This document shows, piece by piece, positions 10,489-37,415 of a stretch of 64,000 bases of DNA. The position numbers were made by a program, and so were the translations under genes. Source of the DNA: Candidatus Poseidoniales archaeon (GTDB taxonomy: Archaea > Thermoplasmatota > Poseidoniia > Poseidoniales > Thalassarchaeaceae); assembly GCA_028283505.1 (NCBI GenBank), contig JAPOFX010000003.1, forward strand, positions 68,125 through 132,124, in the 5' to 3' direction. The notes below the pieces were generated by a model. That model did not search any database. It was not told the origin of the DNA and saw nothing but the letters and a program-made list of their open reading frames with translations. Numbering within the stretch: the stretch's first letter is position 1; every line of letters begins with the position of its first letter.

Positions 10489-10492
10489 CCGC

Positions 10493-10509
10493 CGGTCCCG
10501 TAGGGACCG
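10493..10509 (-). promoter_or_regulatory. Perfect 7-bp stem / 3-nt loop hairpin (CGGTCCC-GTA-GGGACCG) 5 nt upstream of the nuoA start
   Basis: Read directly from the sequence. It lies in the 81-bp spacer between the 896-aa surface-protein gene and nuoA. It could be a terminator or processing site for the upstream gene, or a 5'-UTR element of nuo. Confidence 0.3.
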
Positions 10510-10569
10510 TTGACATGTGCCACCTGAAATTGGGCAATAAGCCTATCCGGTGAAGACTCACCAATCCAC

Positions 10570-13260
10570 CTAAGACTCATCCTGTTCAAGAGCTCGGACT
10601 ATCCTCTTGTTTTCTGACCTGGAACGCATGAAAAGGACGATTACGAGTAGCGCGCCAAATCCGGTTAGCCCATACACTAGTATGTCCTGCATCTCTTGTG
10701 AGAGATCTAGGAATGAATCAGATTTGACCGAATTCACTGTGAGCTCTATTGGCTGACCTGCTACGGGGATTCCCTCTGGCTGAGCTATAACAGTGAATCT
10801 GTAAGAGTCGTCATCCAGTAGTTGGGATGGTGGCGTTGCCCTTACCTGGATCTCTCTGGTCTCTCCTGGGGGAAGCTTGAATTCATCCTCGATAATGTCT
10901 ATTGTCCATCCCCTTAGAGACTCTCCAGATATTATCTCAATGTCCTCAACCACATTGCCGTTGTTTGTCACGAACAATGAGAAAATGGCCTTTTCTGGGT
11001 AATCGACTGTTTGCTCGCTATCACCTTCTAGGGCGAATATGATATCATGTATGGTCATCACTTGAATCATTAAATCCACCGAGGTGGTCTCGGCTGCATT
11101 TCTCTCTGAGGCTGCTGAAACCTTGATTATCCCTGATACTCCATTGGAAACTCCCTCCATGACTTCCATCCGCACCTCTACTAGTATCCTACCATCTTTT
11201 GGAATCTGAATGGAGTTGTCGATCTCGACTCCTTCTACCAAGATACTTCTGGAAACCGATGACTCAAGTCCTGTGATAGTAATCACAGCAGTGTCTCCTG
11301 CGGGGTAGTCTCCGGTATTATCAATCCAGAAGTAGGTTGATAGCCTTCCGCCAGGAGGAAGTATGACTTCCATCTGACTGGGGTCCTCACCTGGTGACTG
11401 GGGTGAGACAGCCATTCCGTAGTTGTAGTTGGAAACAACTACTGTCACAGTGTGTTCAGAGGATTCGCTGGTGCCGAAGATTGCTACTCTGGCGAGGACG
11501 CGTGCCGAGTCTGCATCTTCCTCACCTTCCACTAGGACGTCTAGATATATCTGAGTTGATTGCCCTGGATCTAAGGCTAATTGTGTGATAGAATTACCAT
11601 CAGAGTCGGAAAATGATGATTGCCACATTGGGCTTCCACATCCAGTTTGATCCCCGGGGTCACAAGCTTGGAGTCTGAATGTGTCTCTGATATTGCCCTC
11701 GTTAGTGATCAGGAGGGGGAATTTGACGATCTGATTAGACCTCCCCGTCTGTTGGTCGGAGACCATGGTTGTTGAGACTTCATGCCTGGGAGCAACTGAT
11801 ACTGTTAGATCCTTGGAGTCGTATGGAGTTGATCCTCCTCCTCTTCCGATGGTGAATGAGATAACGGCATCTGATTCGGCACTGGCGTCTTCAGGAACGA
11901 ATACGTCTACCCCTACTGTCTCCTTATTATTGGACGACTGAGAGCTACCTAATGTTACTGATGACTTTGAAAATGAAACCTGCCAACCAGGAGGTACTCC
12001 TGATGTCCCAAGAGCCATGGTTTCCTGACCATTTCCTTGATTTGTGATCTGGATTGAAAGGGTTCCTGAGGTGCCGGGCTCTACATTTGAAAGAGTCGAC
12101 TTGCTTAGTGCCATAGATGCGCCAAATTCCTGTCCGACAGTCACGGTGAGTATCTTCTCACAGCCAATCTCAGAGCCGGCTCTTCCCTGTATTCCTATGG
12201 CGACTTGGGTTCCAGCTTCGAGAGAGTCATCGGGAGTTACATCGAACGTGAAAGTATGGGCATCATCGGAGGACCCTGGCTCTGTTAGCAGTTTACTCCG
12301 AGGGCTGTCAAACTCTATCCAGCCTGAAATATCTTCACCGTCTACAGACTGGGCATTTGCTGTGACGGTCCACTCTGTGTTTCCGATGTTCTCAACTTCG
12401 ATGGAGTTTGATGCCTGTTCTCCCGGGTCAAGATTGTGCGAGCTGTACTGTAGAGAAGCATCGCATTCTTTTATTTCAGGTACATTGAGGCTGAGGGTCA
12501 GGTTATCTTCAGCTTGGTCGGCGGCATTCGGATCGTTGGTGACGGTTGCCTTGAGAATGAAACAATGTGAGCCTGCGTCAGTCTCTGCGCCGTTCGGCAT
12601 ATCAATGGTGACAGTTACTTCTTGTTGATCTTCTGGCTCAAGCTGTAGGACTGACGGATCAACGGTTGCTGATAATTCATCAGATTCGCAGTCACTATCA
12701 GATGTCATCTCAAGTTGTACATTCGCCTGTTGTTCCCCATTGTTTTCAACGTCGACGTCCCAAGTGACTTCATTATCCTCTCCGTCGTAGTTCTTGGTCG
12801 TTGATTCGTCTGTTGAAAGGCTGACCGAGTAAAGACCACCTCCATCACCTGCAGTAGTGACGACGGTTACATCCGCATTTGAAGGGGTTCCTGGGGCTCC
12901 ACCAGATACTTGGCCCTGGGCGTTTACAGTTGTCTCGCATTCACCGCTGGCCTGCTCAGTCACGGTGACAGTCAATGTTACCTGCTCAGAAGACTGGGAA
13001 CCTACTTGGACAAAGGTCGTCTCTAAGGTTGAGGTGAATCCGTTACAATCATTCCCTTGTTGTGTGCTCAAGGACACAGCGGCGTCGTCATCCCCTGTAT
13101 TTCTTACCAATATGTTGTATTCTGCAGCCTCATCTGGAGAGGCCTCTGCAGATGAGGGATTAGCTGAGAGGGAAATATCCACATCTGCAGAAACAACGGT
13201 TGCAGACATGCTAAGGAGCATAATCACGATTAGTACCGTCAGGGGACTCTTGCTTTCCAT
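10570..13260 (-). CDS. Secreted, C-terminally TM-anchored surface protein with about 7 CARDB/NEW3-like Ig repeats (S-layer/adhesin-like)
   Basis: Signal peptide: MESKSPLTVLIVIMLLSMSATVVSADV. Recurring strand motifs about every 110-120 aa: VRNTGDDD, VENNGEQQ, VENIGNTE, ITNQGNGQ, ITNEGNIR, IDNTGDYP, VTNNGNVV. C-terminal TM helix ILVYGLTGFGALLVIVLF followed by a basic tail. Very acidic overall. Confidence 0.7.
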   Translation of the reverse strand: MESKSPLTVLIVIMLLSMSATVVSADVDISLSANPSSAEASPDEAAEYNILVRNTGDDDAAVSLSTQQGNDCNGFTSTLETTFVQVGSQSSEQVTLTVTVTEQASGECETTVNAQGQVSGGAPGTPSNADVTVVTTAGDGGGLYSVSLSTDESTTKNYDGEDNEVTWDVDVENNGEQQANVQLEMTSDSDCESDELSATVDPSVLQLEPEDQQEVTVTIDMPNGAETDAGSHCFILKATVTNDPNAADQAEDNLTLSLNVPEIKECDASLQYSSHNLDPGEQASNSIEVENIGNTEWTVTANAQSVDGEDISGWIEFDSPRSKLLTEPGSSDDAHTFTFDVTPDDSLEAGTQVAIGIQGRAGSEIGCEKILTVTVGQEFGASMALSKSTLSNVEPGTSGTLSIQITNQGNGQETMALGTSGVPPGWQVSFSKSSVTLGSSQSSNNKETVGVDVFVPEDASAESDAVISFTIGRGGGSTPYDSKDLTVSVAPRHEVSTTMVSDQQTGRSNQIVKFPLLITNEGNIRDTFRLQACDPGDQTGCGSPMWQSSFSDSDGNSITQLALDPGQSTQIYLDVLVEGEEDADSARVLARVAIFGTSESSEHTVTVVVSNYNYGMAVSPQSPGEDPSQMEVILPPGGRLSTYFWIDNTGDYPAGDTAVITITGLESSVSRSILVEGVEIDNSIQIPKDGRILVEVRMEVMEGVSNGVSGIIKVSAASERNAAETTSVDLMIQVMTIHDIIFALEGDSEQTVDYPEKAIFSLFVTNNGNVVEDIEIISGESLRGWTIDIIEDEFKLPPGETREIQVRATPPSQLLDDDSYRFTVIAQPEGIPVAGQPIELTVNSVKSDSFLDLSQEMQDILVYGLTGFGALLVIVLFMRSRSENKRIVRALEQDES

Positions 13261-13324
13261 TGCTTTTCGGATACTGCCGACCCTCTAAGGCCTTCGCACC
13301 CATTGCTCACTCTGGGAGCAGTTA

Positions 13325-16300
13325 TCAAGCCTCAACTAGTTCTTCAACAAGGGCATCGCAATGGAGGCATCTGCCCATGGATACAATGTCGCACCCAGAG
13401 ACTTGGTTGGCCTTGTGATATCTCGCCCCACAAACTGAGCATGCCCATGCATCGCCCACAATGACATCGGTACTACAGATCCAACAGGGAACTCCACTAC
13501 TGGTTGATTCACCGGTTTCCACAGCCTCGCTCTTTCTGGTGGTTGATCTGCTCTTGATTATGCTCGATGGGCTTCCATTAGCCTTCACGTAAACAAACGT
13601 GCCCAATCCAGATAGGACAGCAATAATCAAAGTACCGAGGATTAAGGGGAGGTATGATCCCAAGTCTGAGTCACTTCCGAGTGACGGCATTACATCCACC
13701 TGGATTTCAAATGTAGATCCCTCTACATTTTGGGCGTTGATTAGATTTAGGGAAATCGTGGCATCTTGCGCTCCGGGTGTGAATTCCAGAATCATTCCCC
13801 TTGATTCTCCAGGTGCGAGTACGACTCTTACTCCATCGGTTGTCCTAGCACCCCATGATTCAGGGGCATCCACGTCAAGAGTATGCGAGACATCCGAGTT
13901 TCCAGTATTAGTAATATCGATTCTGTATGTTGATTTGTAGCCCTCATGGGCAATTGGCTCCGAATTAAGCGTCCATGATAATTTCGGAGAATCTTCAACC
14001 AAGAGAGACTTTGTGTCTCTAATTTCAATACCATCACCTTCCATTATTAGTGAGATTGTTGGTTCAGTTCCAGCGGGTTCATCATCTGGAATGACTACGA
14101 GACATTCTACGATATCTGATTCGCCTGGTGCTAGAGATGAGGGGGATGTGCATCCATATGACCAATCTTGGGCTGGAAGTTCCATCGTTGTTGTGGGCCT
14201 CCATACTCCGGCTCCTTCATTCCATACCGTCCAGTGCAAATCAAACCCAGGGTCTCCAACGGGATGTTCTCCCACTCCCAGGATTTCGTCTGAGGAAGAT
14301 CCATCTGGGAGGTATATTTGATGGAAGGAAAGCCCTGGAGAGGCTGCCGATAGGACCTCTACTGTAGTATTCCAGTCAATTTTGAAACCATCTGGAGTTG
14401 CCATACGAACTTGAATCAGACCACCAGTAGCTAGTCCATTTCCTTGTAGTATCATTGCCCAATTTACAGATTGTCCCGCTGGGACCGTCAGAGGATCGAT
14501 TTCAACAACGTTCCAACCACCGGGAGATGCCATGAGGTATGGAGTAAGATCCCAGTCCCTATTTCCTGAATTCTGAATTGAAAACTCAATCTCCAAGATC
14601 GCGTCTGGGGCGATTTCTGAAATTACTCCTCCTGGTTGTGGGGACAGGGAGAATTCGTCAACTGGTCCAACTATCAAGAATATATCTTGAGTCCAGGAAA
14701 TGGAGCTTACTCTGGAATGTACAATTATGGCCGCTTCGAATGTGGTACCTTCTGGTATCATTGCCCCTGGCGGGTTTATGGTGATGTCTATTGTCCTGCT
14801 TGACTGCTTTTGCAGAGTCCCTGTGGACCCATGAGACGAGCCTTCGAATGCACCTATTGAGTCAAGCCCTAAATGCCATCCAGCGGGAGACACCAATTCT
14901 ACGTCATAGGACTGGGCGCCGTTTCCCTCGTTCAGAATAGTGATCTGAGTGTTTGTGGCATCAAAGGGGCTGACGAGTATCTGCTCGTTCAGTAACTGGA
15001 TGTTCGCCTCAGCAAGTACAGGGACCTCGAAGTAGAGTAATGTCTCCGACAGGATATCATTCTCAACGTCGTAGCCGGAGAGTGTCATCGAGTAGATACC
15101 CGGCGGAGGGGGTGCAGGGTGTACCATTGTCATCCCAACGGACACTTCTTCAGTGGGCATCAGATTGAACGTGTTTGAGGTGAATGATTGGAACCATCCG
15201 AACTGTGTTCCATCCTGCACTCTGGTCGGCTCAGATACCGAGATAGTGGCGTTGGTCTCAAATATGGCTGTGTTGGTAAGGGTTAGTTCCCAAGTTGAAG
15301 TTGTAGTAGACGCATCTACCAGAGTCACAGTGTCCTCAACGGCGGAAACCTTTACTCCTGGAGCGCTTACAGTGACTATCTCTCCGAAGTAATTATTTGA
15401 TTCCGACATCTCATCGAATTGATTGTTTGGATCTATGAAGAATTCGAATGACGTATCTCCCTCGGAATCAGGGGTCCATGACCAAACTAAATCATCCGTC
15501 TCCCCGGGGGAGAGTGAAATTAATTGCTCGGCTAGGAAAGCTGAGTTAACTCTGGCCATCACTGGAAAGTCGATTGCGGAGCCGGCTCCGAGATTCTTCA
15601 CCGAGACCGTTACCTGAACCTCCTCACCCACTTGAGGAATGGGTGTGGAAAGATTCATTGAATCTGGAACGAACGTCGGATCCGGGCTTAGATCGTTGAC
15701 ATTGTGCCCCCTTACGGCAATTGAGAATGGTTGCCATGTGCGAGAACCGCCGTGTTGCGAGTCCTTTACTCTGATTGTCCATATTCCCTGGGCGGTACTG
15801 TCCAATGCGACAACCTCTACGTTATTGACAGAATCCTTGCTACCTCCCTGAGTAGATCTGCCATTAGTGAACACATTACCCTTGTAGGTGGCCCCATCTG
15901 GAGAGATTACCTCTAAGTCCAGATCGTTCCTCAATTGAATGGTAGAGCTGGAGGAACCTGGATAATCGGACCAGGTTAGCACTGCCTTGAACTCATTGCC
16001 GGGCGAATTTACATCAAAGGTGTACTCAATTACCTCCCCACTCTTGATTCTCGATCGGTCATCAACGAAGATTCCTACCTCCCCCTCCGGTATGAGAGAC
16101 TGAACCAAATCTATCCTTCCCCATCCTTCATCGTCGTTTGGGATATCTCTGGCCCCCATATCCTTGGCTCCAAGGATCAGGAGAGCCTTTACCAATGATC
16201 CCTGAGGAGCCTGCCTCCCAATCACTTCGGTTAGGTACTCTCTGACTAGGGCCGAAGAACCCGCTGCGGCTGGTGTGGCCATCGACGTTCCGCTGTATTC

Positions 16301-17803
16301 CATATACCAAGTATTAGACCACGATCCTCCTGCAGAGCTAGCTTCCTGTGCTTTGCACGACCGTACGTAGTCCCCGGGGGCCACTAGATCCGGTTTTATT
16401 CGGCCATCATCAGTGGGGCCCCTACTGCTCCAGTAGTACATTTCGTCGGGTGCGCCACTGTACCTGTTCTTGTGACCACCAACAGTGATTACATTCTTCG
16501 CAGTCCCCGGAGAAGATACTCCATCGTCCCTTTCGTTTCCGGCCGCGAATAGTACAGTCATACCGTCATAAGACCAATACTGATCCCAAGTTGATGTTCT
16601 ATCGTCGGCATCTTCTGACTGTGTAGAGTAGTCCCCAAAACCACTTTGAGATCCCCAACTATTGGTATGGATTCTGGCTCCTGCATTGTATGCAGAATTT
16701 AGCATGGAATTAATCCCATAACTGTAGAGAGCTCCTGAATCATCATCCTCCATTGCCTGAAAGTACAATTCGGCCTCCGGGGCGACCCCTTGATAACCAC
16801 CATTGCTCCTAAATCCTGATCCAAGAACAGTACACGCAACATGCGTCCCGTGACCATCACTTGGATCCGCGGTTGATGAGTCCCCAGGGGTCACGGAGGT
16901 TACGCCTGCCAGCCTTCCGGTGAAGTCTCCGTGGTCTTGATCGAGTCCAGAGTCGCCCACTGCGACAATCTGGCCACTACCATTTAGGCCGGTTATGAAT
17001 GCATTCTCTATCGTGTTGATTCCCATGTTTATTCTTGCTTGGTCATTGTGCAGAATAAGGACTGGAAGAGGCGAGATATACGATACAGAAGGATGTGACA
17101 CTATGCGTGAGATATTAGCGAAGTCTGCCGATCCCCAAATTACTCCTGGTTCCGGGGACCAGGGCTCTGTGAGATAGCCCATTACGGCTTCAATGGAGTC
17201 CTGAAGTCCCAATCCTGGATTTTTGAGGCGAGACATGTCATCGCCCTTCCATCCGATTACCTCGATCATCAATTCTTGGGATTGGGTGGGGAATCTTAGT
17301 GATGGATGAATTAAGAGTCCGCTGGGAACCTCATGAACAGAGGTAATTGACTCCAGTGACTCCAGTTCCGTGAGGGCTTTCTCGGTTCCTTGTACTAAGA
17401 ACCCAGAGGGGGGAATCATAGAACGGATGGATATGCCCCCCAACTGTAGTACATCCATTCTCGAGTCCCAGAGTCCTGTATTTCCATCAATCAGTGCGAC
17501 TGCCAGATCTACTCTTGGGATTGAGAATGACTCATCCATGAATTCACTTGGAATCAAACCATTTTGTGTGTACGTTCCTATTGTGGAATGTGCGACTACC
17601 TGCCGAATTTCTTCTGATCCCTGTGAGATGGATGGAGCTCCTAAATCCCTGATACTTCGCGGATCAGGGGAAATTTCAACCCTCTCGTAATTGATCCCTA
17701 ATCCCGAAAGTATCGACTCTTCGGAGGACTTATTTTCACCAGTAACAGGGAGATATGACAAGAGGAGCACGGCTAGCACCACAACTACGGCACGCTTTGT
17801 CAT
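13325..17803 (-). CDS. Membrane-anchored subtilisin-like serine protease (S8) with multiple Ig-like repeat domains and a cytoplasmic Cys-rich zinc-ribbon tail
   Basis: Signal peptide: MTKRAVVVVLAVLLLSYLPVTG. S8 triad motifs: VAVGDSGLD (Asp), HGTHVACTVLG (His), SGTSMATPAAAG (Ser). Repeat motifs: VKNLGAGS, ILNEGNGA, IQNSGNRD, VWNEGAGV, ITNTGNSD. TM helix: LPLILGTLIIAVLSGLGTFVYV. Tail: CWIC-x11-CSVC-x12-C-x7-CLHC. Confidence 0.85.
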   Translation of the reverse strand: MTKRAVVVVLAVLLLSYLPVTGENKSSEESILSGLGINYERVEISPDPRSIRDLGAPSISQGSEEIRQVVAHSTIGTYTQNGLIPSEFMDESFSIPRVDLAVALIDGNTGLWDSRMDVLQLGGISIRSMIPPSGFLVQGTEKALTELESLESITSVHEVPSGLLIHPSLRFPTQSQELMIEVIGWKGDDMSRLKNPGLGLQDSIEAVMGYLTEPWSPEPGVIWGSADFANISRIVSHPSVSYISPLPVLILHNDQARINMGINTIENAFITGLNGSGQIVAVGDSGLDQDHGDFTGRLAGVTSVTPGDSSTADPSDGHGTHVACTVLGSGFRSNGGYQGVAPEAELYFQAMEDDDSGALYSYGINSMLNSAYNAGARIHTNSWGSQSGFGDYSTQSEDADDRTSTWDQYWSYDGMTVLFAAGNERDDGVSSPGTAKNVITVGGHKNRYSGAPDEMYYWSSRGPTDDGRIKPDLVAPGDYVRSCKAQEASSAGGSWSNTWYMEYSGTSMATPAAAGSSALVREYLTEVIGRQAPQGSLVKALLILGAKDMGARDIPNDDEGWGRIDLVQSLIPEGEVGIFVDDRSRIKSGEVIEYTFDVNSPGNEFKAVLTWSDYPGSSSSTIQLRNDLDLEVISPDGATYKGNVFTNGRSTQGGSKDSVNNVEVVALDSTAQGIWTIRVKDSQHGGSRTWQPFSIAVRGHNVNDLSPDPTFVPDSMNLSTPIPQVGEEVQVTVSVKNLGAGSAIDFPVMARVNSAFLAEQLISLSPGETDDLVWSWTPDSEGDTSFEFFIDPNNQFDEMSESNNYFGEIVTVSAPGVKVSAVEDTVTLVDASTTTSTWELTLTNTAIFETNATISVSEPTRVQDGTQFGWFQSFTSNTFNLMPTEEVSVGMTMVHPAPPPPGIYSMTLSGYDVENDILSETLLYFEVPVLAEANIQLLNEQILVSPFDATNTQITILNEGNGAQSYDVELVSPAGWHLGLDSIGAFEGSSHGSTGTLQKQSSRTIDITINPPGAMIPEGTTFEAAIIVHSRVSSISWTQDIFLIVGPVDEFSLSPQPGGVISEIAPDAILEIEFSIQNSGNRDWDLTPYLMASPGGWNVVEIDPLTVPAGQSVNWAMILQGNGLATGGLIQVRMATPDGFKIDWNTTVEVLSAASPGLSFHQIYLPDGSSSDEILGVGEHPVGDPGFDLHWTVWNEGAGVWRPTTTMELPAQDWSYGCTSPSSLAPGESDIVECLVVIPDDEPAGTEPTISLIMEGDGIEIRDTKSLLVEDSPKLSWTLNSEPIAHEGYKSTYRIDITNTGNSDVSHTLDVDAPESWGARTTDGVRVVLAPGESRGMILEFTPGAQDATISLNLINAQNVEGSTFEIQVDVMPSLGSDSDLGSYLPLILGTLIIAVLSGLGTFVYVKANGSPSSIIKSRSTTRKSEAVETGESTSSGVPCWICSTDVIVGDAWACSVCGARYHKANQVSGCDIVSMGRCLHCDALVEELVEA

Positions 17804-17857
17804 CAGAAGTCCCCGTGACAGGAGTATTTTGAGCGTATGGGTCTCCTGAACAATTTG

Positions 17858-18418
17858 CTAGAGAATCTTTAATGGGGCCCTTAGAGTAAAGAGTTCTAGA
17901 GTCCAGGTTCCCACTTCCATAGTAGTCTTCTCGTAAACAGGTCCTCTGTAGTTATCATAGCTGAAGATTATTTCTATCGTGTAGTTCTCCCAAACCGACT
18001 CTCCGTTGACTATCATTTCAAGCTCATCTCCGGCAACAGACTTGTGAGCTGAGATCAAATCTGACTCGAAATGTATTCTTTGTATCTCAGCATCATCATC
18101 ATCCATGAAGACTATATCCAAGGAGACTGATTCTATAGCTCTGCTTCCCTGATTGTTTATCTCTGCCAGAACGATGTGACTCGAGCCGCTCTGCTTGTAG
18201 ATTACGTCTACTGAAACCCTGTCATACGGAACAAGCCAGACCAATGCCAAAACAGAGGCTGAGAGTACCAAGAGTGCAGATATAGACGCAAATACGACCC
18301 TGAATGGGGATATTTGACTGATTTTTTCCTCTATGATTTCCAAGGCTTCATGTGCGGTTTTTTCCTCGGGGGTCTCCTCGGGCTCTTTAGATAGCCTGAT
18401 TCTTTCCAAGAGACCCAT
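17858..18418 (-). CDS. Small type-II membrane protein with a single Ig-like (CARDB-type) ectodomain
   Basis: 186 aa with an acidic N-terminus and the TM helix FRVVFASISALLVLSASVLALVWLV. A beta-rich domain follows, carrying the AEINNQGSRAIESVSLDI motif. Its start overlaps the stop of the 1464-aa gene by 1 nt (TGATG at 18418). Confidence 0.55.
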   Translation of the reverse strand: MGLLERIRLSKEPEETPEEKTAHEALEIIEEKISQISPFRVVFASISALLVLSASVLALVWLVPYDRVSVDVIYKQSGSSHIVLAEINNQGSRAIESVSLDIVFMDDDDAEIQRIHFESDLISAHKSVAGDELEMIVNGESVWENYTIEIIFSYDNYRGPVYEKTTMEVGTWTLELFTLRAPLKIL

Positions 18419-21400
18419 CAGCTACCCCCCAAGAGTGTGGCTATTAGCGTCATTAGGCCCGAAGATACCGGTTCGATTACCATGATGTGCTGAGTGTCAC
18501 CTTCGAAGCCAGGAATAATGTTCAGAATGGAAAGATCTGATGCCATTCCGTTAACACCTATCGTTGTTGCAGTAGGAATTCCCGATGTTGTCTGTGCATC
18601 TAGAAGAACTCCCCTAAGATCGAACTCTTGTCCAGCTACCTCAGCTGATGCCCTGGCTGAAATGATTATCTTGCCACCCTGGACATCTGAAAGCTCAATT
18701 ACGGGGTAGCCTGGAAGTGTCGACGAAATTCTTCCAAATTCATGAATATGGATAGTGGCACTCTTCAAGTCCTCTCCCAATGCCTCCATTTCCTCCATTG
18801 TGACTGGAGGAGTTGTAGGGATGTTACTAGACCGGATGTATATTTTGTCGACACCGTCTCCCCCCGATCTAATATTCAAACCAAATCCATCAGCAGGTTT
18901 GATTATCAAGCTATCAGTCATTCCTTCTGCTAACAATATGATGTCTCCCTTGGTATTAATTGATCTACCAAAGGCCTCAATGTACAGGGACATCCCCTCG
19001 CCAGACGCACGATAATCCAATGTGGGAATCCCCTGGAAGGCTAGACTCTCCCTTATGTCGAAATCTGTATCGGGCTCCGTGGTGAGATTAATCGAGCCGG
19101 GAACATCTGTGAGGAAAATTGTGGCTGGCCACCACTCAGAGTCCATCCATTGCATCTGTTGCATCATGATGGAACTAATTCCTACACCGTCATCTTTGAG
19201 GTACTGTTCTGGAACCGTCATGTCTATCGATACAGCGGTTCCAAGAGATGCAGTGATGTCCACAACCTCTGGAATTTCATCAATCATTATCTCGGTTCTG
19301 CTACCAGCGTCCCTATTGATCAGTAAGACATGGGCCCATTCCAAGGGGTTGGTCATGGAATATCTTGCTGAGGTGGATACCTCTGTTATCCCTGCAACGT
19401 TTTCAAACTCGAATGTGGAGTCAATCAGCATGCCCGTTGGGACGCCGACTTGTAGACCATTCAATGTCATTAGGAGGTCTTGACCGTTTATGCCCATAGC
19501 TTGAATCATAATCTCGCTATGTGCGGGGACCCATCCATCGAGTGCTAACATAACTCCCCAGTCTTGTGAGTCCCCTTCAACGGATCTAGAGACTGACATG
19601 TCAACCACCGGAGGCAGATCAGGAATCCAGGTTCTCAGATGGAACCCGTCTGAAATTCCAGATGGAGAAGCGACAAATGAAACCCCATGTACCCAAGGTG
19701 GCGTTTCCAGTGAGCCATCGCCGTGGCTGGCCTCAACGACAAGATCGAACGGTGCATTCGCCTCTAGCTGCATACCGAATGAGAAATTTTCATTTGATTC
19801 CCCAGAGCTTGAGCCTGTGGAAATATCGGTTGTAATCCCGGAAAGAACAGCATTTAAGGACCTTCCTAGATCAGAGAATCCTCCGAGGAAGAATGCGAGC
19901 CCTGAAAGGCCTTGTGTCGAATTGAGTTCAGGGATGTCCAAAGCTTGTCCTGAATCAGAGCTTGTTGGAACTTCTACAGATACCGATGATGGTAGTGGGT
20001 CAATTATCGCAACGGCTGTCAGGAGGTCCTCATCCATGGTTGGAGCGTGATCCACGCTGAAGCTCATGATCCTGTCACCTGAGGCAGACAATGACGCCTT
20101 TCCCCTGCCATCTGGGCCAAATGCTCCCTCGGAGACAGGAGGAATCCAGCTGACCTCGGAAATACCGGAGATTCTAGATGAGATGGCAGAGGTTCCATCA
20201 TTCGGGTCATGATGAAACATAAAGTGATCACCAGACATCGTTTCTGGGGCTTGTGAGTCTGTAATCTGAGCCTCTATTGTGCCGATAGATGTCCCTGTGC
20301 TCCAGCTTGAATATGATCCAAATAGAGCTGTGAACTCATCCGGGAAGTCGGTTATCTCGACGGCTTGCCTTTGTTCCAAATCCTTTCCAGTATAGATTAT
20401 TTTGTCGATTCCACCCGATGATGTGTAGACCGCTGTTTCGTCATCGACGTAAACCCTGATATCATCCGGAATATCCGAGACATACAGAGACTGGAATGAA
20501 GACTCTGAAATCGTTCTTGGATCATGATCCAAGTACGTAAAATTGAATGGCTCAGAAGAGGATGTATTTACTGATATTGTCAATTGGTCGAGAATATCAT
20601 CATCATCTACTGAAAGGGCTGACAGCCCACTGAATTCTATACTAGCGGCAACGGGGACCAAGGGGTCTACTAATGTTCCATCTCTGCTCAAAACCTGAGT
20701 CAGTGACCTGTCTTTCGCCAAGACCAGATGGTCGCCTTGGAGTATCGGATGAGGGCTTGACCCTATTTGCAAACCGATTTTCCCAATGGATAACTCGTTT
20801 CTGAGGACACCCCAGTTGTCGTGCATTATCAGATTGAATTCCCTGCCCTGCAAATCTCCGCTCGGACCTACGCTACCGGTGATTGCTTCCACGACGGTCG
20901 CGGGAATGCCGTTTAGTACTCCCCCAACTTCCAGGTAGAGATCGACTAAATCCATGATTAATGAGTCTAGAATACGAGAAACGAAATCTAGGTTATCGGA
21001 GTTATCCAAGCTTATGTCATCGTCATCCTCGCCACTCACATCGAAGGAACCGTATAGCACTAAAGCGGAGGGAATTGATTGTATGGAGATGCTAACTTTC
21101 CTGTGATCAGATGCTTCTCCTCCTCTCTCGAACCATGATTCATAGTCGATTGATTCCAGGGGCTGAGCTGACCTCAGCAATATCATACTTATTGGGGGGT
21201 ATGCAGGGTTTACTGGAAGAGTGGGATCATCCTCGTTGGGACTAGTATCCCTCGAGAAATTCTTGATTCCTAATATCAAACCCAGTCTGCCAGGCTTACC
21301 TCCAGGTAACTCTGGCTCGTCGGATGAGCCTAGCATTCTGAAGATCCTAGTTATCTCTCCTTGAGACATTGACCCCTCAGGCATTCCCCTGAGCCATCCG

Positions 21401-22812
21401 AGTGAATTTGTAGTGTTGCCATGTGCCCCCTCATTCTCATCTTGGGGGATTCCTGACCTATCTTCATGGAAATGAATATGCAAGTCAGATCTTCTATCAG
21501 CGAAATACTCCACGGTTGTAAGGCTCCTGTCTCCCTCAATTCCGCCTGCCGCTGGTATAGTGCTGTCCGTTCTGATGACCAATTCCAGATCCCCGGGAAT
21601 CATCTCCGAAACCCCGTTGGGCTTGACGTCGAGGTCGATGTACGCTAATTCCCACAATTCCCTGTCTCCATCCGAAGGGGGGGAGAATCTCCCGTAACCA
21701 AGACCCACCGATATCCCACAGTCAATCTCGCTTGGGGGGAGGAATAGAAGTTGCTCTGGGCTATACCTGTCCGGGCACGAGTCCATGTCGCTGGAGTCGA
21801 GGGATATCGAGTAGGGTGCAGAAATGCCGATCAGGGTTAGTCCCGAACCATCAAAGTTTGATCCGAATATGTTCACTATTGCCGCTAAAAGGTCCTGTAA
21901 CACAGCACTAGCATTGAAGAATACTCTCTCAATGCCGATATCCAGAGAAAAGTCCTGTGGCATTGTTGAGAATTTTGAGTCGACAACCCAAACATAACTC
22001 TCCCCGTCACCGAGTGCAAGTACTGAGTCTGGGCTGGAGTAGGCGAAAGGCTTGATTAGGGAAACCTGCAAGGAGTCCATTTCATTCCATACAGGATCTG
22101 TCTGACTTTCATCGAGCACGTCTACTTTGTATGATACCGATGGCTGTATCCACAATGTTCCAGTGTCAATATCTATGTTGCCCAGTCCAAAATTTCCTAG
22201 AGATATACTGAGGCCGACTTGGATATCATTATCTCCATCATTATCGATATCCACGGCGTGGCTCAGGGGGTCAGTTTGAGGATTTATCAGAGAGAGGAAG
22301 TTGGTAGTGAAAGTTACAACATTAGTGCCTGTAACGGTATTTCCTTCGAGGTCTATGTATTCCGTCAATATCACATAATCCGTTATGTTTACCAATGTCT
22401 GCCAGACATTGTCCACATTTACTGAGTCTTCCTCGCCGGTTATCAGTCTGTAAGGGAGGGGGTGTTCGGAGCCAGGAGAGAGAGTCTCGCTGAACGATGT
22501 GCCTTCCAAGGATTGGCCAATGGTGGATAACGGGTCCGATTGACCACTCAGAGAAATCCCGTCTCTGACACCCTGGATGGTCGGACCAGCAATCTGCCCG
22601 ACTGAGTTAGAGTCCAAAACTGCTTGACGCTCGCCCATCACATCAGAAAGCCTGTCTAGAATCTCGAAGTCCTGAGACTCTATCCTTGCCTCCGCCTCGG
22701 CTTGTTGGATTGGGTAGAAAAGTGGAATAAGCATCATAAGAACCAGGACTAATGCTCTGTTGCTTGAAACATTGGGGGCGCCATGTAGAACACGGACACC
22801 GCTCTTGTTCAT
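18418..22812 (-). CDS. Giant (1464 aa) acidic secreted protein with no domain I can recognise
   Basis: N-terminal signal/anchor NRALVLVLMMLIPLFYPIQQAEAEA. Strong D/E/S/T bias throughout. One DIDNDGDNDIQ calcium-loop-like element. The protein ends in a short hydrophobic stretch, SSGLMTLIATLLGGS, with no basic tail. Confidence 0.6.
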   Translation of the reverse strand: MNKSGVRVLHGAPNVSSNRALVLVLMMLIPLFYPIQQAEAEARIESQDFEILDRLSDVMGERQAVLDSNSVGQIAGPTIQGVRDGISLSGQSDPLSTIGQSLEGTSFSETLSPGSEHPLPYRLITGEEDSVNVDNVWQTLVNITDYVILTEYIDLEGNTVTGTNVVTFTTNFLSLINPQTDPLSHAVDIDNDGDNDIQVGLSISLGNFGLGNIDIDTGTLWIQPSVSYKVDVLDESQTDPVWNEMDSLQVSLIKPFAYSSPDSVLALGDGESYVWVVDSKFSTMPQDFSLDIGIERVFFNASAVLQDLLAAIVNIFGSNFDGSGLTLIGISAPYSISLDSSDMDSCPDRYSPEQLLFLPPSEIDCGISVGLGYGRFSPPSDGDRELWELAYIDLDVKPNGVSEMIPGDLELVIRTDSTIPAAGGIEGDRSLTTVEYFADRRSDLHIHFHEDRSGIPQDENEGAHGNTTNSLGWLRGMPEGSMSQGEITRIFRMLGSSDEPELPGGKPGRLGLILGIKNFSRDTSPNEDDPTLPVNPAYPPISMILLRSAQPLESIDYESWFERGGEASDHRKVSISIQSIPSALVLYGSFDVSGEDDDDISLDNSDNLDFVSRILDSLIMDLVDLYLEVGGVLNGIPATVVEAITGSVGPSGDLQGREFNLIMHDNWGVLRNELSIGKIGLQIGSSPHPILQGDHLVLAKDRSLTQVLSRDGTLVDPLVPVAASIEFSGLSALSVDDDDILDQLTISVNTSSSEPFNFTYLDHDPRTISESSFQSLYVSDIPDDIRVYVDDETAVYTSSGGIDKIIYTGKDLEQRQAVEITDFPDEFTALFGSYSSWSTGTSIGTIEAQITDSQAPETMSGDHFMFHHDPNDGTSAISSRISGISEVSWIPPVSEGAFGPDGRGKASLSASGDRIMSFSVDHAPTMDEDLLTAVAIIDPLPSSVSVEVPTSSDSGQALDIPELNSTQGLSGLAFFLGGFSDLGRSLNAVLSGITTDISTGSSSGESNENFSFGMQLEANAPFDLVVEASHGDGSLETPPWVHGVSFVASPSGISDGFHLRTWIPDLPPVVDMSVSRSVEGDSQDWGVMLALDGWVPAHSEIMIQAMGINGQDLLMTLNGLQVGVPTGMLIDSTFEFENVAGITEVSTSARYSMTNPLEWAHVLLINRDAGSRTEIMIDEIPEVVDITASLGTAVSIDMTVPEQYLKDDGVGISSIMMQQMQWMDSEWWPATIFLTDVPGSINLTTEPDTDFDIRESLAFQGIPTLDYRASGEGMSLYIEAFGRSINTKGDIILLAEGMTDSLIIKPADGFGLNIRSGGDGVDKIYIRSSNIPTTPPVTMEEMEALGEDLKSATIHIHEFGRISSTLPGYPVIELSDVQGGKIIISARASAEVAGQEFDLRGVLLDAQTTSGIPTATTIGVNGMASDLSILNIIPGFEGDTQHIMVIEPVSSGLMTLIATLLGGS

Positions 22813-22815
22813 GCA

Positions 22816-22834
22816 CGCACCTCTAAGAGGTGCG
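22816..22834 (-). promoter_or_regulatory. 8-bp stem / 3-nt loop hairpin sequestering the Shine-Dalgarno-like GAGGTG of the 1464-aa gene
   Basis: The minus strand reads CGCACCTC-TTA-GAGGTGCG-TGC-ATG. The 3' arm contains GAGGTG with its last base 5 nt before the ATG at 22812, and the 5' arm is its exact complement. Confidence 0.4.
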
Positions 22835-22895
22835 CTAAAGGCTATTGCCCTTCCTGATTAAGATAAATATCCTCATTGAGACCGTTTTGGAATCA

Positions 22896-25298
22896 TCATT
22901 CTATCTCTACGATCTCCATTGATCCGCAATGGGGGCAAGCTGTCTTGGCTCTGTCCAAACCCTTTGGCAAATCTACTTCGAACATCTTGTCGCACTCAGA
23001 ACAATTCTTCCTGACTGTTCTGTTTTCTTCTTGTTCTTGGGCCTCTTCCTGGACGTGATCTTGTAATTGATTAGATTGTTCTGGATTATGCCCTGCCTCG
23101 GCCCCTTCTCGTTTTTCCGATTCCTCTGTGAATGAGTATTCCACAACGCTTTCCAGAATCTGAGATGGGGGGTCTTCGTCTTCGAATGCACTGAGGAGAT
23201 CGGCGGCAAGGCTATCGGAGGGATCCGATTGAGAAGGCTGTGAAAGTAGTTCAGCAAATTCTTCCTCACTGATCTCCAGTGAGCTGGCCTCTGAATCTGG
23301 AGCGGAGGCCCCCGACATGCCACTTGCAATATCCCCGATAGCCATTGGTTGCGTGTTTGATAGAGTTCCGCCAGAGCCTCCCCACATGGCTTTCTGCTCC
23401 TCGGCTGAGGGCTCCCTGACAACAGTTTGGTCTTCCTCCGCTTCGGTTTCGGAGTCGGCGAGCAAAGCGGCCACTCTCCTATTTGAGGCGATTCTCAAAT
23501 ATGCCAAGAAAGAGAGTACAAAAAGTAGTGATAATGCCCCTAGGGCCATCAGAAGGTCGCTTAGTCCAATCCCATCTCCGCTCTCAGCGTCTGTGACTGT
23601 AACGAGTATTTCTACATCTGAAACCAGCCCCTCGTCGTTCTGGACCCTGCAGATTACCCGGTATACTCCCGACTCTGAGAATGTATGCTGTACCGTCGGT
23701 CCGACAGCGTCCTCGTCGTTGTCCACGGTTCCGTCGCCATCGGTATCTACCTGAGCATTGAAATCCCAAGAGTAGTACAGACTTTCCGACTCTTGATCTT
23801 CGAAAGGTACTCCCAGGGTAGTTGATTGTCCTTGGACAGACCTCAAGGTGCTGTCAAACACTCCAGGGATCGGGGGGGTCGAGTCAAACAGTTGGATGGA
23901 AGCGGTGTCTTCCGAAGACATCCCAGAGAGATCGGTTACTCTGAGAGTGATCATGTGAATTCCGGATTCGGCCTCTGAGGGGAATGTGTATGCGAACGTG
24001 CGTGCAGATTCAAAATCGGCTTCGAAGGTTGACTGGATCGCACCGTCCAGTATCCACTCGACCTTTGAAACACCCCAGTTATCACTGAAGGTCGAATCGA
24101 CGACTATGTTCTCGTTGAACGATCTTTCAAGAATTCCATCAACTAAAATTTCCACTTCAGGAGGCGACATGTCCTCAATCGTTATGTCTTCGTATACGCT
24201 AGTACTCCTTCCATCTATCCCTAGGACTGATAGTCTGATTGTCAGATTACTCGGCTCTGGCCAGCTGATGTTGAAGGCCTTCTCGGTACTATCTTCAAAT
24301 CCGTCCCCGTCAGTGTCCCATGAGTATCCTGATTCGGGAATTTGATCGGAGAGGTTGGGGGTTTCTGATGCATCAAGAGTGATTTCCGAGCCGACATCGA
24401 CGATTCCGGAGGAGGGTATTCCAGATACTTTTGGATCCATTATCGGAGTAAGTGATAGGACAACCGTGGATGCGATTGGAAGTGTTCCTGCACCTCCTCC
24501 CGACGGTCCAGGCTTATTGTCCACAACGAGGTAGAGTTCCTTTCCCTCCAAAGATTCTGGAACTGTCCAAACTAGGTTCCTGCTTGAGGTTACAAGAAGC
24601 AGATCGGTTCCTTGGACTCGGGCTGCTGCTGTTCCTCCCCCATTGTACATTTCCAACTGATCATCATCCATAAGAAAAACATCAGGGGCTCCCTGCATTG
24701 TGCTTACGTCTATCCTCACTTGGGTCCCTTTGTCCATCGAGAAGGGGCCGTAGAGGGTGGAGCTCTGGCCGGATTCCAATCGAACGATGGTGTCCACTAG
24801 AGTGAACGGTTCAGGTATCACAGTTGAGATGTCCAGAGTCACTGAAGCTGGATTTCCTCCTTGGTCACCTGACCCGGAATCTTGCGGATGCGCGAGGTTG
24901 TCTATCACCATATACCACCTTGTGGCGTCTCTATCAGATGGAACAGTCCAATGCCATTCCCCTGAACCATTGAATGCCTCGAAAACTGAGTCGCTTTCCC
25001 AGACAGAGTCGCTCCTGTATGACTGCTCGTTCTGATAAACGGTTATTGCGTTTGAAGAGAACAACAGTATGTCTATCTCAGAATCTGTGGAGATATCGAA
25101 GGATATTGTCTCGCCCTGCTGAAGCACTCCGAGATCTACCCTGACGCAGGACTGATCCTGAACATCCCAATTCGCCGGCATCATTTCCATATCTGCTCCA
25201 GCACATGTAACGACGCCCCTAGAGGAGTCAGCGTTTGCGAGAGGCGAGCAAGTGGCCATCAAGAGGGTGGCGACGGTCAGTATTGTGGTTGCACGCAC
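22896..25298 (-). CDS. Membrane-anchored surface protein with tandem N-terminal beta-sandwich repeats, PKD domains, a long acidic cytoplasmic tail and a C-terminal zinc ribbon
   Basis: GTG start and signal peptide MRATTILTVATLLMATCSPLANA. PKD-type motifs YSWDTDGDGFEDS and YYSWDFNAQVDTDGDGTVDNDEDAVGPTVQHTFSESGVYRVICRVQNDEGL. TM helix LLMALGALSLLFVLSFLAYL. The 199-aa D/E/S-rich tail ends in CSECDKMFEVDLPKGLDRAKTACPHCGS. Confidence 0.75.
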   Translation of the reverse strand: MRATTILTVATLLMATCSPLANADSSRGVVTCAGADMEMMPANWDVQDQSCVRVDLGVLQQGETISFDISTDSEIDILLFSSNAITVYQNEQSYRSDSVWESDSVFEAFNGSGEWHWTVPSDRDATRWYMVIDNLAHPQDSGSGDQGGNPASVTLDISTVIPEPFTLVDTIVRLESGQSSTLYGPFSMDKGTQVRIDVSTMQGAPDVFLMDDDQLEMYNGGGTAAARVQGTDLLLVTSSRNLVWTVPESLEGKELYLVVDNKPGPSGGGAGTLPIASTVVLSLTPIMDPKVSGIPSSGIVDVGSEITLDASETPNLSDQIPESGYSWDTDGDGFEDSTEKAFNISWPEPSNLTIRLSVLGIDGRSTSVYEDITIEDMSPPEVEILVDGILERSFNENIVVDSTFSDNWGVSKVEWILDGAIQSTFEADFESARTFAYTFPSEAESGIHMITLRVTDLSGMSSEDTASIQLFDSTPPIPGVFDSTLRSVQGQSTTLGVPFEDQESESLYYSWDFNAQVDTDGDGTVDNDEDAVGPTVQHTFSESGVYRVICRVQNDEGLVSDVEILVTVTDAESGDGIGLSDLLMALGALSLLFVLSFLAYLRIASNRRVAALLADSETEAEEDQTVVREPSAEEQKAMWGGSGGTLSNTQPMAIGDIASGMSGASAPDSEASSLEISEEEFAELLSQPSQSDPSDSLAADLLSAFEDEDPPSQILESVVEYSFTEESEKREGAEAGHNPEQSNQLQDHVQEEAQEQEENRTVRKNCSECDKMFEVDLPKGLDRAKTACPHCGSMEIVEIE

Positions 25299-25354
25299 GG
25301 ATTAGGGTTATCGTTCCCCTTTTGAATCATATTGACCATACGCTCATTCACGAG

Positions 25355-25609
25355 TCAAAGGTTCTTGGGAAGAGGCGTTGGCGGGAACCATCGCAGCAAA
25401 ACGACATCACCAACCGACCTGACCCACTTCCAGGGTATTGCAAGGTGAGTTCGTCCCTCTACCAAGTCTGCAGGAGGATCTGAGACAAATATGTGGGTAC
25501 ATGACCAGTCATCCGTGTTGACGAAGGAGTCGTATACAGTCCCGAGCAGCCTTCCACTAGGAAGAATGACTGGAAGGCCCCTGATCTCCGATGCGTGCAG
25601 GTCAGCCAT
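25355..25609 (-). CDS. PRC-barrel domain protein
   Basis: 84 aa. The pattern EIRGLPVILPSGRLLGTVYDSFVNTDDWSCTHIFVS...HLAIPWKWVRSVGDVVLL matches the PRC-barrel consensus layout. Confidence 0.55.
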   Translation of the reverse strand: MADLHASEIRGLPVILPSGRLLGTVYDSFVNTDDWSCTHIFVSDPPADLVEGRTHLAIPWKWVRSVGDVVLLRWFPPTPLPKNL

Positions 25610-26412: not shown

Positions 26413-26516
26413 TGGTCCGCGCTCCCGGACTTGAACCGGGGACCCCCTGATGGCTGCCTACAACCATGTGTTTCCAGTCTACAGTCAGGTGCTCTAGCCA
26501 ACTGAGCTAAGCGCGG
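26413..26516 (-). tRNA. tRNA-Tyr (GUA) with a 27-nt intron at the canonical 37/38 position and encoded CCA
   Basis: Manual fold of the minus strand. Acceptor CCGCGCT/AGCGCGG, with the C1-G72 pair typical of archaeal tRNA-Tyr. D arm GCTC-AGTTGGCTA-GAGC. Anticodon stem CCTGA/TCAGG and loop CTGTAG|intron|A. T arm CCCGG-TTCAAGT-CCGGG. Discriminator A followed by CCA. The mature length is 77 nt. Confidence 0.85.
26452..26478 (-). other. tRNA-Tyr intron (27 nt) with a bulge-helix-bulge splice motif
   Basis: Intron sequence: ACTGGAAACACATGGTTGTAGGCAGCC. Nucleotides 32-35 (CUGU) pair with intron GCAG as the 4-bp central helix. The flanking 3-nt bulges are AG|A and CC|A, and both splice sites fall after the second bulge nucleotide. 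Confidence 0.7.
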
Positions 26517-37345: not shown

Positions 37346-37367
37346 GAGGCACTGGGGTCGGTTTTTG

Positions 37368-37375
37368 TTATATAA
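37368..37375 (-). promoter_or_regulatory. Candidate archaeal TATA box (TTATATAA) for proteorhodopsin
   Basis: It lies 23-30 nt upstream of the ATG at 37345, inside the 70-bp spacer. This spacing fits a leaderless or very short-leader transcript. Confidence 0.35.
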
Positions 37376-37415
37376 GAAGGTGGTATGATACATGCGAAAT
37401 TTGGCAAAAAATGCA

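Follow-up and report, generated by a model that had tools for sequence, protein, structure and literature searches.

Five consecutive genes on the minus strand form a 14,729 bp block in a genome segment of a Candidatus Poseidoniales archaeon of the family Thalassarchaeaceae (assembly GCA_028283505.1, contig JAPOFX010000003.1, positions 68,125 to 132,124). The whole segment, 64,000 nucleotides in length, is called the window here, and the block fills 23% of it. In the direction of transcription, the block encodes proteins of 800, 1464, 186, 1492, and 896 residues, as follows: a membrane protein with a PKD domain, a giant protein that matches no curated family, a small partner of the giant, an S8 protease, and a protein with seven Ig-like repeats. 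On balance, we favor the view that this locus, passed on vertically, belongs to the core of the cell envelope across the Poseidoniales, as a constitutive module that would carry a tethered protease.

Layout of the Block

The gene for the PKD protein (22896-25298) has a GTG start. It is followed by the open reading frames of the giant (18418-22812), the partner (17858-18418), the protease (13325-17803), and the seven-Ig protein (10570-13260), all on the minus strand. The ATG of the partner gene overlaps the stop codon of the giant gene, the two genes having one base in common (TGATG), and the remaining spacers are 83, 54, and 64 bp. An earlier note on this DNA had described the five reading frames, their coordinates, spacers and overlap, and their share of the window, and that description holds. 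The block is bounded by rpl15e and a PRC-barrel gene on one side and by nuoA on the other.

Conservation of the Locus

When one genome per species was scanned, at least 147 species proved to have relatives. Because the scan relied on two peptide patterns confined to giants of the Marine Group IIb (MGIIb) type, 147 is a lower bound for one clade. Eighty loci were fetched, all of them from Poseidoniales and most with the label Thalassarchaeaceae or MGIIb. The nearest public relative is the metagenome-assembled genome UBA130 (Candidatus Poseidoniales at NCBI), whose giant is 96% identical to that of the window at the protein level.

As located by tblastn of the window proteins, the gene order throughout these loci is ftsZ (on the opposite strand), rpl15e, PRC-barrel, the genes for the 800-, 1464-, 186-, 1492-, and 896-residue proteins, and nuoA-D. 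All 53 loci that have the eight markers are collinear, as are the 62 that have all five block genes and the 75 that have the giant, the partner, and the protease. None of the 80 lacks a block gene where room exists for it. Conservation of the five-gene order in relatives had been put forward in the earlier note as a check on its proposal, and it is what was found.

The arrangement extends to distant relatives. Full-length giants at 33-41% identity carry Poseidoniales names, and three loci with such giants (L081, L086, and L088) have the same five-gene block beside nuoA. Another locus, L087, has four of the five genes, and its protease region is broken into short open reading frames. In L081, four unrelated genes lie between the PKD gene and the giant gene, and the genes for the giant, the partner, the protease, and the seven-Ig protein are contiguous. 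L088 is packed like an operon: its five genes either overlap or abut, and the gaps between them measure -4, 8, 8, and 5 nt.

Some further features of these loci may be recorded here. The L081 contig (ctg495766), on which the block lies beside nuoA, is 3.0 Mb long and 68% GC, a size and a GC content that are unusual for Poseidoniales-like genomes. An extra gene encoding a protein of metallo-β-lactamase fold sits between the PRC-barrel and PKD genes in L081 (3481-4605), L086 (5981-7102), and L087 (2900-4027); the window does not have it. About 1 kb of extra DNA is found between the same two genes in L023, L025, L064, L065, L072, and L073.

Giants that are only 21-25% identical to that of the window range from 1250 to 1840 residues, and one of them (P0184) is named "Thermoplasmata archaeon". 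Genes for the protease, the seven-Ig protein, and the PKD protein are not found alongside these giants. Homologues of the partner directly follow the giant in two of the four cases examined, L082 (hidden Markov model (HMM) match, E = 2e-12) and L084, where the partner aligns too. Since the giant, with or without the partner, occurs without the other three genes in distant Thermoplasmata, the giant and the partner are, judged by this distribution, the older core, and the five-gene arrangement is a Poseidoniales feature.

The orthologues vary little in length: 1456-1503 residues for the protease, 881-900 for the seven-Ig protein, 184-193 for the partner, and about 1455-1467 for the giant. In comparison with the closest relative, the ratio of nonsynonymous to synonymous substitution rates (dN/dS) is 0.118 for the PKD protein, 0.056 for the giant, 0.053 for the partner, 0.074 for the protease, and 0.055 for the seven-Ig protein; the same comparison gives 0.02 for L15e and nuoA. 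The PKD protein is the most variable member of the block, at 34-52% identity, and its length is also more variable. Because the lengths are near-constant and dN/dS is low, the block genes are judged to be functional and under strong purifying selection, and not to be fast-changing adhesins.

Architecture of the Five Proteins

Kyte-Doolittle hydropathy places a hydrophobic segment at the N-terminus of all five proteins, in agreement with the signal peptide or N-terminal anchor that the earlier note had assigned to each. Signal-peptide cleavage is judged from AxA-like sites only. C-terminal transmembrane segments are predicted at residues 582-600 of the PKD protein, 1388-1406 of the protease, and 860-878 of the seven-Ig protein. 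The giant ends in a hydrophobic stretch, and the partner has an anchor with its N-terminus inside at residues 41-59. All five proteins are acidic. Lys and Arg together make up 4.5-5% of four of them and 8.1% of the partner, versus 10-12% (up to 14%) for most cytoplasmic proteins encoded in the window; the secreted M14 peptidase of the window, at 4.8%, is low like the block proteins.

The motif [VI]xNxG is present seven times in the seven-Ig protein, with a period of about 117 residues, where 0.5 copies are expected from composition. The protease has five copies (0.9 expected) and the partner one, and all of the strings of this kind quoted in the earlier note are present. An HMM built from the repeats of the seven-Ig protein matches the protease stalk with E = 6e-12. 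The same HMM matches neither the PKD protein nor the giant, nor does it match the partner (E = 0.2). That is, one repeat type is common to the seven-Ig protein and the protease stalk. The claim that a repeat type is shared by three members is supported statistically for these two only.

The protease begins with a signal peptide and some 250 residues of N-terminal region; these are followed, in order, by a catalytic domain with a β-barrel, a CARDB domain, Ig-like repeats, a transmembrane segment, and a tail. The Peptidase_S8 catalytic domain (PF00082; residues 275-562, at 16118-16981 on the minus strand) scores 161.4 bits against a cut-off of 21.8 and covers profile positions 1-288 of 288. The catalytic triad of D284, H321, and S507 and the oxyanion residue N423 are 100% conserved in 71 orthologues. 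Residues 271-681 align with residues 17-418 of the 434 residues of KP-43 (1wmd_A; E = 9.6e-73), and SubHal (5fax) is matched with E = 1e-72. The likeness to these two enzymes includes the catalytic and β-barrel domains aligned end to end, the triad, and the oxyanion Asn. Pfam's P_proprotein spans residues 621-686. The CARDB domain, at residues 715-806, scores 60.4 bits (cut-off 22.7), NPCBM_assoc scores 28.5 (cut-off 24.4), and four or five further Ig-like repeats extend from the CARDB domain to the transmembrane helix at 1388-1406. The S8 and PKD identities and the CARDB/NEW3-type domains named in the earlier note are thus confirmed by Pfam matches above cut-off, and the triad is fully conserved.

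By these alignments, the 1492-residue protein is a predicted membrane-anchored subtilase of the KP-43 type, with an intact catalytic triad, carried on an Ig-domain stalk. Enzymes of the KP-43 group are secreted in soluble form and have about 430 residues, whereas the block protease adds the CARDB domain, the Ig-like repeats, the transmembrane helix, and a Cys/His module. It also has, unlike KP-43, the extra N-terminal region of about 250 residues, for which a relaxed Pfam scan gave no credible family. Cell-envelope proteinases of the PrtP/C5a-peptidase type are likewise held at the surface through a long C-terminal extension. In the block protease, the anchor is a transmembrane helix and not an LPXTG or type IX secretion system (T9SS) signal.

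The cytoplasmic tail of the protease contains a module rich in Cys and His (13358-13486, minus strand) with the conserved pattern CWICS..CSVCGARYH..C..CLHC. The module, in the general form CWICS..CSxCGARYH..C..CxHC, is found in about 70% of MGIIb loci and also in L081 and L086. About 28% of loci have in its place a Trp-rich module, EYPGWLWDP..EEWVPDP, and the tails of L069 and L088 are short or unrelated. No zinc-ribbon model matches the protease tail, and what is conserved is only the Cys/His pattern. That the tails are conserved yet swappable suggests that they are read by a cytoplasmic partner.

After a signal peptide, the seven-Ig protein has seven Ig-like repeats in tandem (residues 26-844; each about 115 residues), then the transmembrane segment and a short basic tail. 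Its Pfam matches are to Ig-like families, with NPCBM_assoc at 27.0 bits (cut-off 24.4). The first 223 residues match NCBIfam NF041740, "choice-of-anchor T", at 93.5 bits, above the curated cut-off of 70, so that the annotation pipeline of NCBI would call the protein a member. NF041740 is a model for naming, and of the protein it takes in no more than the signal peptide plus repeats one and two. Eight Cys residues of the protein are at least 99% conserved.

The PKD protein is a type I membrane protein with, in order, a signal peptide, a conserved N-terminal region that belongs to no Pfam family, Ig/PKD domains, a transmembrane segment, and an acidic cytoplasmic tail of about 190 residues that closes with a CxxC...CxxC motif. 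The PKD domain at residues 487-561 scores 45.2 bits with PKD_4 (cut-off 27) and 38.6 with PKD (cut-off 23.5). A relaxed Pfam scan of the N-terminal region found nothing credible. The closing motif, a putative Cys4 zinc ribbon (CSECDKMF...CPHC; 22926-23003, minus strand), is recognized by the conservation of its Cys residues: all 64 orthologues have Cys766, 769, 788, and 791, and deep relatives retain the motif. Pfam's Zn_ribbon_8 scores 23.0 bits on the tail, under its cut-off of 34.4. The tails that the earlier note had taken for zinc ribbons in two members of the block are therefore conserved features, invariantly so in the PKD protein and in about 70% of loci for the protease.

The giant is a secreted protein with a signal peptide at its start and a hydrophobic end (HIMVIEPVSSGLMTLIATLLGGS). 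It has no match reaching cut-off in Pfam or NCBIfam, and a profile search found no sequence match in the PDB. AlphaFold2 predictions of its two overlapping halves gave pTM values of 0.67 and 0.70 and pLDDT values of 71 and 64, and the predicted structures consist almost entirely of long antiparallel β-strands. Foldseek searches of both halves against the PDB returned nothing at E ≤ 0.001, with a best TM-score of about 0.1. For the C-terminal half, BFVD gave two matches at E ≤ 0.001, with TM-scores of 0.07-0.11, and no TM-score for the giant exceeded about 0.23 in either database. Outer-membrane barrels, ApoB, and tail fibres were considered as homologues and rejected, the matches being non-significant with TM-scores of about 0.1. 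The structure search that the earlier note had advanced as a check on the giant thus gave no fold match.

A word-indexed search found 240 homologues of the giant; among the 120 matches listed, nearly all are full-length, at 1427-1466 residues, with identities down to 52-53%. An exhaustive HMMER search with the giant family against 1.84 billion representative proteins returned 168 clusters only. The giant founds a Thermoplasmata-specific family that is without a curated model and that extends beyond the Poseidoniales. The earlier note had called the giant an orphan. The term is apt in that no curated family includes it, and it is misplaced in that there are hundreds of full-length homologues in a family reaching beyond the order.

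A conserved element closes the giant (18421-18492, minus strand). It has the form H-x-h-h-[PVA]-[EAD]-P-h-S/T-S/T, after which some ten hydrophobic residues lead to the stop codon, and it is retained family-wide, from MGIIb through relatives that are only 21-25% identical. The protein ends ..VPEP/VIEP-SSG-hydrophobic-GGS, with a PEP-like core and no basic tail. Comparison of the C-terminus with the NCBIfam sorting-signal models (PGF-CTERM, PEP-CTERM, and relatives) gave no match at E ≤ 10. Substrates of archaeosortases and exosortases are identified by a motif, a transmembrane helix, and a basic cluster together, a combination that the giant does not have.

The partner has a cytoplasmic N-terminus, a single transmembrane segment, and a β-rich ectodomain of about 125 residues that includes the one [VI]xNxG motif. 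It has no match at cut-off in Pfam or NCBIfam; the sole match is to NCBIfam FxLYD, with E = 0.002 and 18 bits versus a cut-off of 23. A relaxed Pfam scan of the ectodomain likewise found nothing credible.

Upstream Elements and Transcription Units

The upstream regions of 50-70 loci were aligned, anchored at the start codon. In the window, promoter-like boxes on the minus strand precede four of the five genes. The box of the PKD gene, TTCAAAAG (25319-25326), ends 21 nt before the GTG; in 46 of 62 loci, the end of the box falls at -23 to -21. The box of the giant gene, GCCTTTAG (22835-22842), ends 23 nt before the ATG; of 64 loci, 30 have a CCCTTTAG-type box with its end at -23, and 10 more have it at -25 to -28. 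For the protease gene, CTCAAAAT (17826-17833) ends 23 nt before the ATG, and 56 of 71 loci have a box of this type with its end between -26 and -23. For the seven-Ig gene, CCTTAGAG (13283-13290) ends 23 nt before the ATG, and position -23 is the end of CTTAGAR in 59 of 66 loci. Before this last gene, positions -39 to -18 are 80-99% conserved among loci whose giant is at most 57% identical to that of the window.

In archaea, a distance of about 23 nt from the end of a TATA box to the start codon is consistent with a leaderless mRNA. A/T boxes of the same type lie about 22-23 nt before genes that are first in their units elsewhere in the window (those for the M14 peptidase, HisRS, a prenyltransferase, and others), for example, 5′ of 34133, 27856, 29930, 39347, and 58372. 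GGTGA-type Shine-Dalgarno motifs are found instead before genes inside the nuo operon and before the partner gene. These patterns suggest that leaderless mRNAs are the rule in this genome.

Since, in this lineage, each gene except that of the partner has a conserved box of its own, the block is probably made up of four transcription units rather than one operon, as follows: the PKD gene; the giant and partner genes; the protease gene; and the seven-Ig gene. The earlier note had taken the block to be one co-expressed module; in the sense of a single operon, this part of its proposal finds no support in this lineage, given the four boxes, which end 21-24 nt before their starts. Only the giant-partner pair displays what a single operon should, namely, no internal promoter and coupling by a Shine-Dalgarno motif or an overlap. 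A promoter-like box is lacking before the partner gene, where a Shine-Dalgarno-like GGGGGG/GGAGGTGA lies 5-12 nt 5′ of the start, and the gap between the giant and partner genes has a median of 0 nt and a range of -4 to 19 in 59 loci. From this arrangement, we infer that the giant and the partner are co-translated.

Other elements in the spacers may bear on expression. A conserved G-rich motif occupies positions -12 to -7 of the protease gene, and GAGGTG precedes the ATG of the giant gene; both could be Shine-Dalgarno sites on read-through transcripts. No oligo-T terminators were seen in the block spacers of the window. A scan for promoters and terminators of the bacterial type gave fewer matches than shuffled sequence, and nothing can be read from it in archaeal DNA.

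The giant gene also has a perfect 9 bp palindrome, GCGCACCTC-TTA-GAGGTGCGT (22815-22835, minus strand), which is set between its box and its ATG and is unique in the window. Its arms are conserved in sequence across MGIIb, without covariation, and as RNA it folds with -16.4 kcal/mol (z = -2.7). The palindrome could be a repressor operator, or it could form a hairpin that sequesters a Shine-Dalgarno sequence.

Two hairpins are found in other loci and are weak or absent in the window itself. In many MGIIb loci (L010, L019, L031, L050, and L065), a conserved hairpin, CGCGACCC-TAA-GGGTCGCG, lies directly 3′ of the protease stop codon and before the box of the seven-Ig gene; a similar hairpin, ATGGGTTC...GAACCCAT, lies 3′ of the partner gene. 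These could be terminators or RNA-stability elements.

Flanking Genes and Other Features of the Window

Downstream of the block, on the same strand and 81 bp away, starts the nuo operon (nuoA, B, C, D, H, I ... L, M). The spacer before nuoA (10489-10569, minus strand) has a conserved GGATAGGCTTATTGCC box about 55 nt 5′ of the start and then, just before the start, a conserved hairpin, GGTCCC-TAC-GGGACC. A structured leader is thus possible for the nuo operon.

The upstream flank comprises rpl15e, the PRC-barrel gene, a tRNA gene that probably contains an intron, and the divergent ftsZ. The PRC-barrel gene (25355-25609, minus strand) encodes 84 residues, lies between rpl15e and the block, is highly conserved (mean column identity 0.77), and is found in 66 of the 80 related loci. 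The tRNA gene (26416-26516, minus strand) is 101 nt long and scores 56 bits with Rfam; ARAGORN misses it, and the surplus of some 30 bases is likely to be a tRNA intron of the archaeal kind.

Farther away, two minus-strand loci may be pointed out. At 30127-34133, the gene for a 724-residue M14 zinc carboxypeptidase overlaps by one base the start of a gene for an SNF-family sodium symporter, possibly a digest-and-import pair. At 36545-37486 lies a gene of the bacteriorhodopsin family (proteorhodopsin type), which suits the genome of a photoheterotrophic member of the Poseidoniales.

A Probable Core Envelope Locus with a Tethered Protease

The archaea of Marine Group II (MGII) are uncultured and are thought to live on proteins and peptides (PMC5069720, PMC9723583). 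S8 subtilases are reported to be their dominant, highly transcribed extracellular peptidases (PMC5069720; PMC9723583; PMC6864105). A search of the MGII genomics, transcriptomics, and virus literature found no description of the five-gene cluster, and the locus as a conserved unit appears to be undescribed. The protease and the Ig-domain proteins are further members of known families, and the giant and the partner are an uncharacterised family.

The reading that we favor, with somewhat more confidence than doubt, is that of a vertically inherited envelope module, made constitutively. It draws on the core status of the genes, the constant architecture of the products, their surface topology, and the repeat type shared by two of them, and it agrees with the role published for S8 subtilases in MGII. 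The products are probably core envelope constituents, not optional adhesins. In the model, all five proteins would be exported, each with a single hydrophobic segment as its anchor in the cytoplasmic membrane. Ig-domain stalks, with about six Ig-like domains under the protease, would raise the ectodomains a few tens of nanometres above the membrane to form a permanent protein coat. The tethered protease would cut dissolved or particulate protein at the surface, freeing peptides beside the cell's transporters, the presumed direction of supply. The putative zinc-binding cytoplasmic tails of two members would couple the coat to a cytoplasmic partner. From sequence, we also infer a physical association of the five proteins.

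In the heterotrophic archaeon Staphylothermus marinus, the tetrabrachion/STABLE complex is a surface layer, a stalked structure of very large envelope proteins in which a subtilisin-family protease is fixed. The block differs in several respects: the giant profile finds no sequence relation in the PDB, the giant is all-β and not a coiled-coil stalk, and the protease carries its own anchor.

Several observations weigh against the envelope module. ftsZ, the L15e gene, the PRC-barrel gene, and nuoA-D are as syntenic as the block genes, and since these flanking housekeeping genes keep their places equally well, gene order alone does not prove a functional unit. In MGIIb, every block gene but that of the partner has its own promoter-like box, so that co-regulation can only be supposed. 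The predicted structure of the giant is only moderately confident (pLDDT 64-71). Lastly, the seven-Ig protein has one N-glycosylation sequon where about eight are expected, unlike many archaeal envelope glycoproteins. Stronger arguments than gene order are that four genes stay contiguous where the giant is down to 33-41% identity, that the genes of L088 are compacted, that two members have repeats in common, and that two have putative zinc-binding tails.

A sharper version of this explanation is that the locus encodes a surface (S-) layer. The seven-Ig protein, or the giant with its small anchor, or both, would be lattice proteins, and the protease would be an integral, stalk-mounted component. 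We regard this version as unlikely, though the best placed of the alternatives. The genes are universal, apparently single at the locus, and constant in length, and the proteins are strongly acidic with few basic residues, all of which would suit an S-layer. The S-layer glycoprotein of Haloferax volcanii, encoded by csg, is built of six Ig-like domains with a C-terminal anchor, a build that the seven-Ig protein resembles with its signal peptide, its seven Ig-like repeats, and its C-terminal anchor; both have about 830-900 residues and no domains other than Ig-like ones. In the Sulfolobales, the two-component SlaA/SlaB S-layer has a protein of about 1,400 residues encoded next to a small membrane-anchored partner, and the giant and its small membrane-anchored partner, as a coupled pair, recall slaA/slaB. 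The tetrabrachion/STABLE layer, with its built-in protease, is a further parallel for this version.

These likenesses are of build only, as no sequence or fold similarity to SlaA/SlaB or csg is detectable. No S-layer family of Pfam or NCBIfam matches the block proteins. Profiles of the giant, the seven-Ig protein, and the partner, and a single-sequence search with the PKD protein, match no solved S-layer protein among PDB sequences, and the Foldseek searches of the giant halves against the PDB, which is expected to include SlaA and csg, find nothing. A PGF-CTERM signal is lacking. Enrichment in sequons, sought in the block proteins as a mark of S-layer glycoproteins, was not found, and in the seven-Ig protein sequons are depleted. 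In a Red Sea metatranscriptome, the dominant MGII mRNAs are reported to be those of disordered, collagen-like surface proteins and not those of the block genes (PMC5069720). The full form of the proposal, in which the giant family with its partner, the seven-Ig protein, or both make the lattice or canopy of a putative MGII surface layer and the subtilase is mounted on a stalk of matching length, seems to us a little less likely still. If it were true, the giant would close, in its H-x-h-h-P-E-P-hydrophobic end, with an anchoring or sorting signal of a novel type.

Improbable, to our mind, is that the five are neighbors by inheritance only, that is, separate genes for surface proteins in a chromosomal region that rearranges slowly, linked by nothing but the surface location of their products. 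The flanking genes, from FtsZ and L15e through PRC-barrel to nuoA-D, do hold the same order in the same loci, the promoter-like elements are separate, the distant Thermoplasmata giants occur with or without the partner and apart from the S8, seven-Ig, and PKD genes, and L081 has unrelated genes between the PKD gene and the giant. Against this stand the contiguity of the giant, partner, S8, and seven-Ig genes in L081, L086, and L088 (in L087 the protease region is fragmented) and the spacers of -4, 8, 8, and 5 nt in L088, which are hard to explain without co-expression. Inheritance alone also leaves aside the repeat type common to the protease and the seven-Ig protein and the unusual putative zinc-binding tail that two members share.

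Equally improbable is the proposal of the earlier note that the block is one co-transcribed operon for adhesion and extracellular proteolysis, by which a particle-associated cell attaches to particles and digests them: in its favor, the genes run on the same strand at close spacing and two of them overlap, adhesins often contain PKD and Ig-like domains, read-through is possible where the window spacers are without obvious oligo-T terminators, and L088 is packed like an operon, but the four conserved boxes share their geometry with unrelated first genes while operon-internal genes have Shine-Dalgarno motifs, the constant lengths, constant repeat number, and strongly purifying selection (dN/dS 0.05-0.12) are the opposite of what variable adhesins display, no domain of known ligand-binding specificity was found, and North Sea MGII oligotypes are prevalent in the 0.2-3 µm free-living fraction (PMC6864105).

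Implications for Marine Group II

Read as a core envelope module, the locus gives the S8 protease of MGII a concrete setting: the enzyme would be tethered to the membrane on an Ig-domain stalk and would have fixed neighbors. These neighbors are a stalk protein that has repeats in common with the enzyme and a large family of unknown fold that reaches other Thermoplasmata. The conserved, exchangeable cytoplasmic tails point to a link between the envelope and the cytoplasm. The locus also defines targets, namely, four promoter-like elements, five proteins for look-ups in metatranscriptomes and metaproteomes, antigens and probes for imaging, and expression constructs. It is thus a testable handle on the envelope and the protein-feeding apparatus of a very abundant archaeal order.

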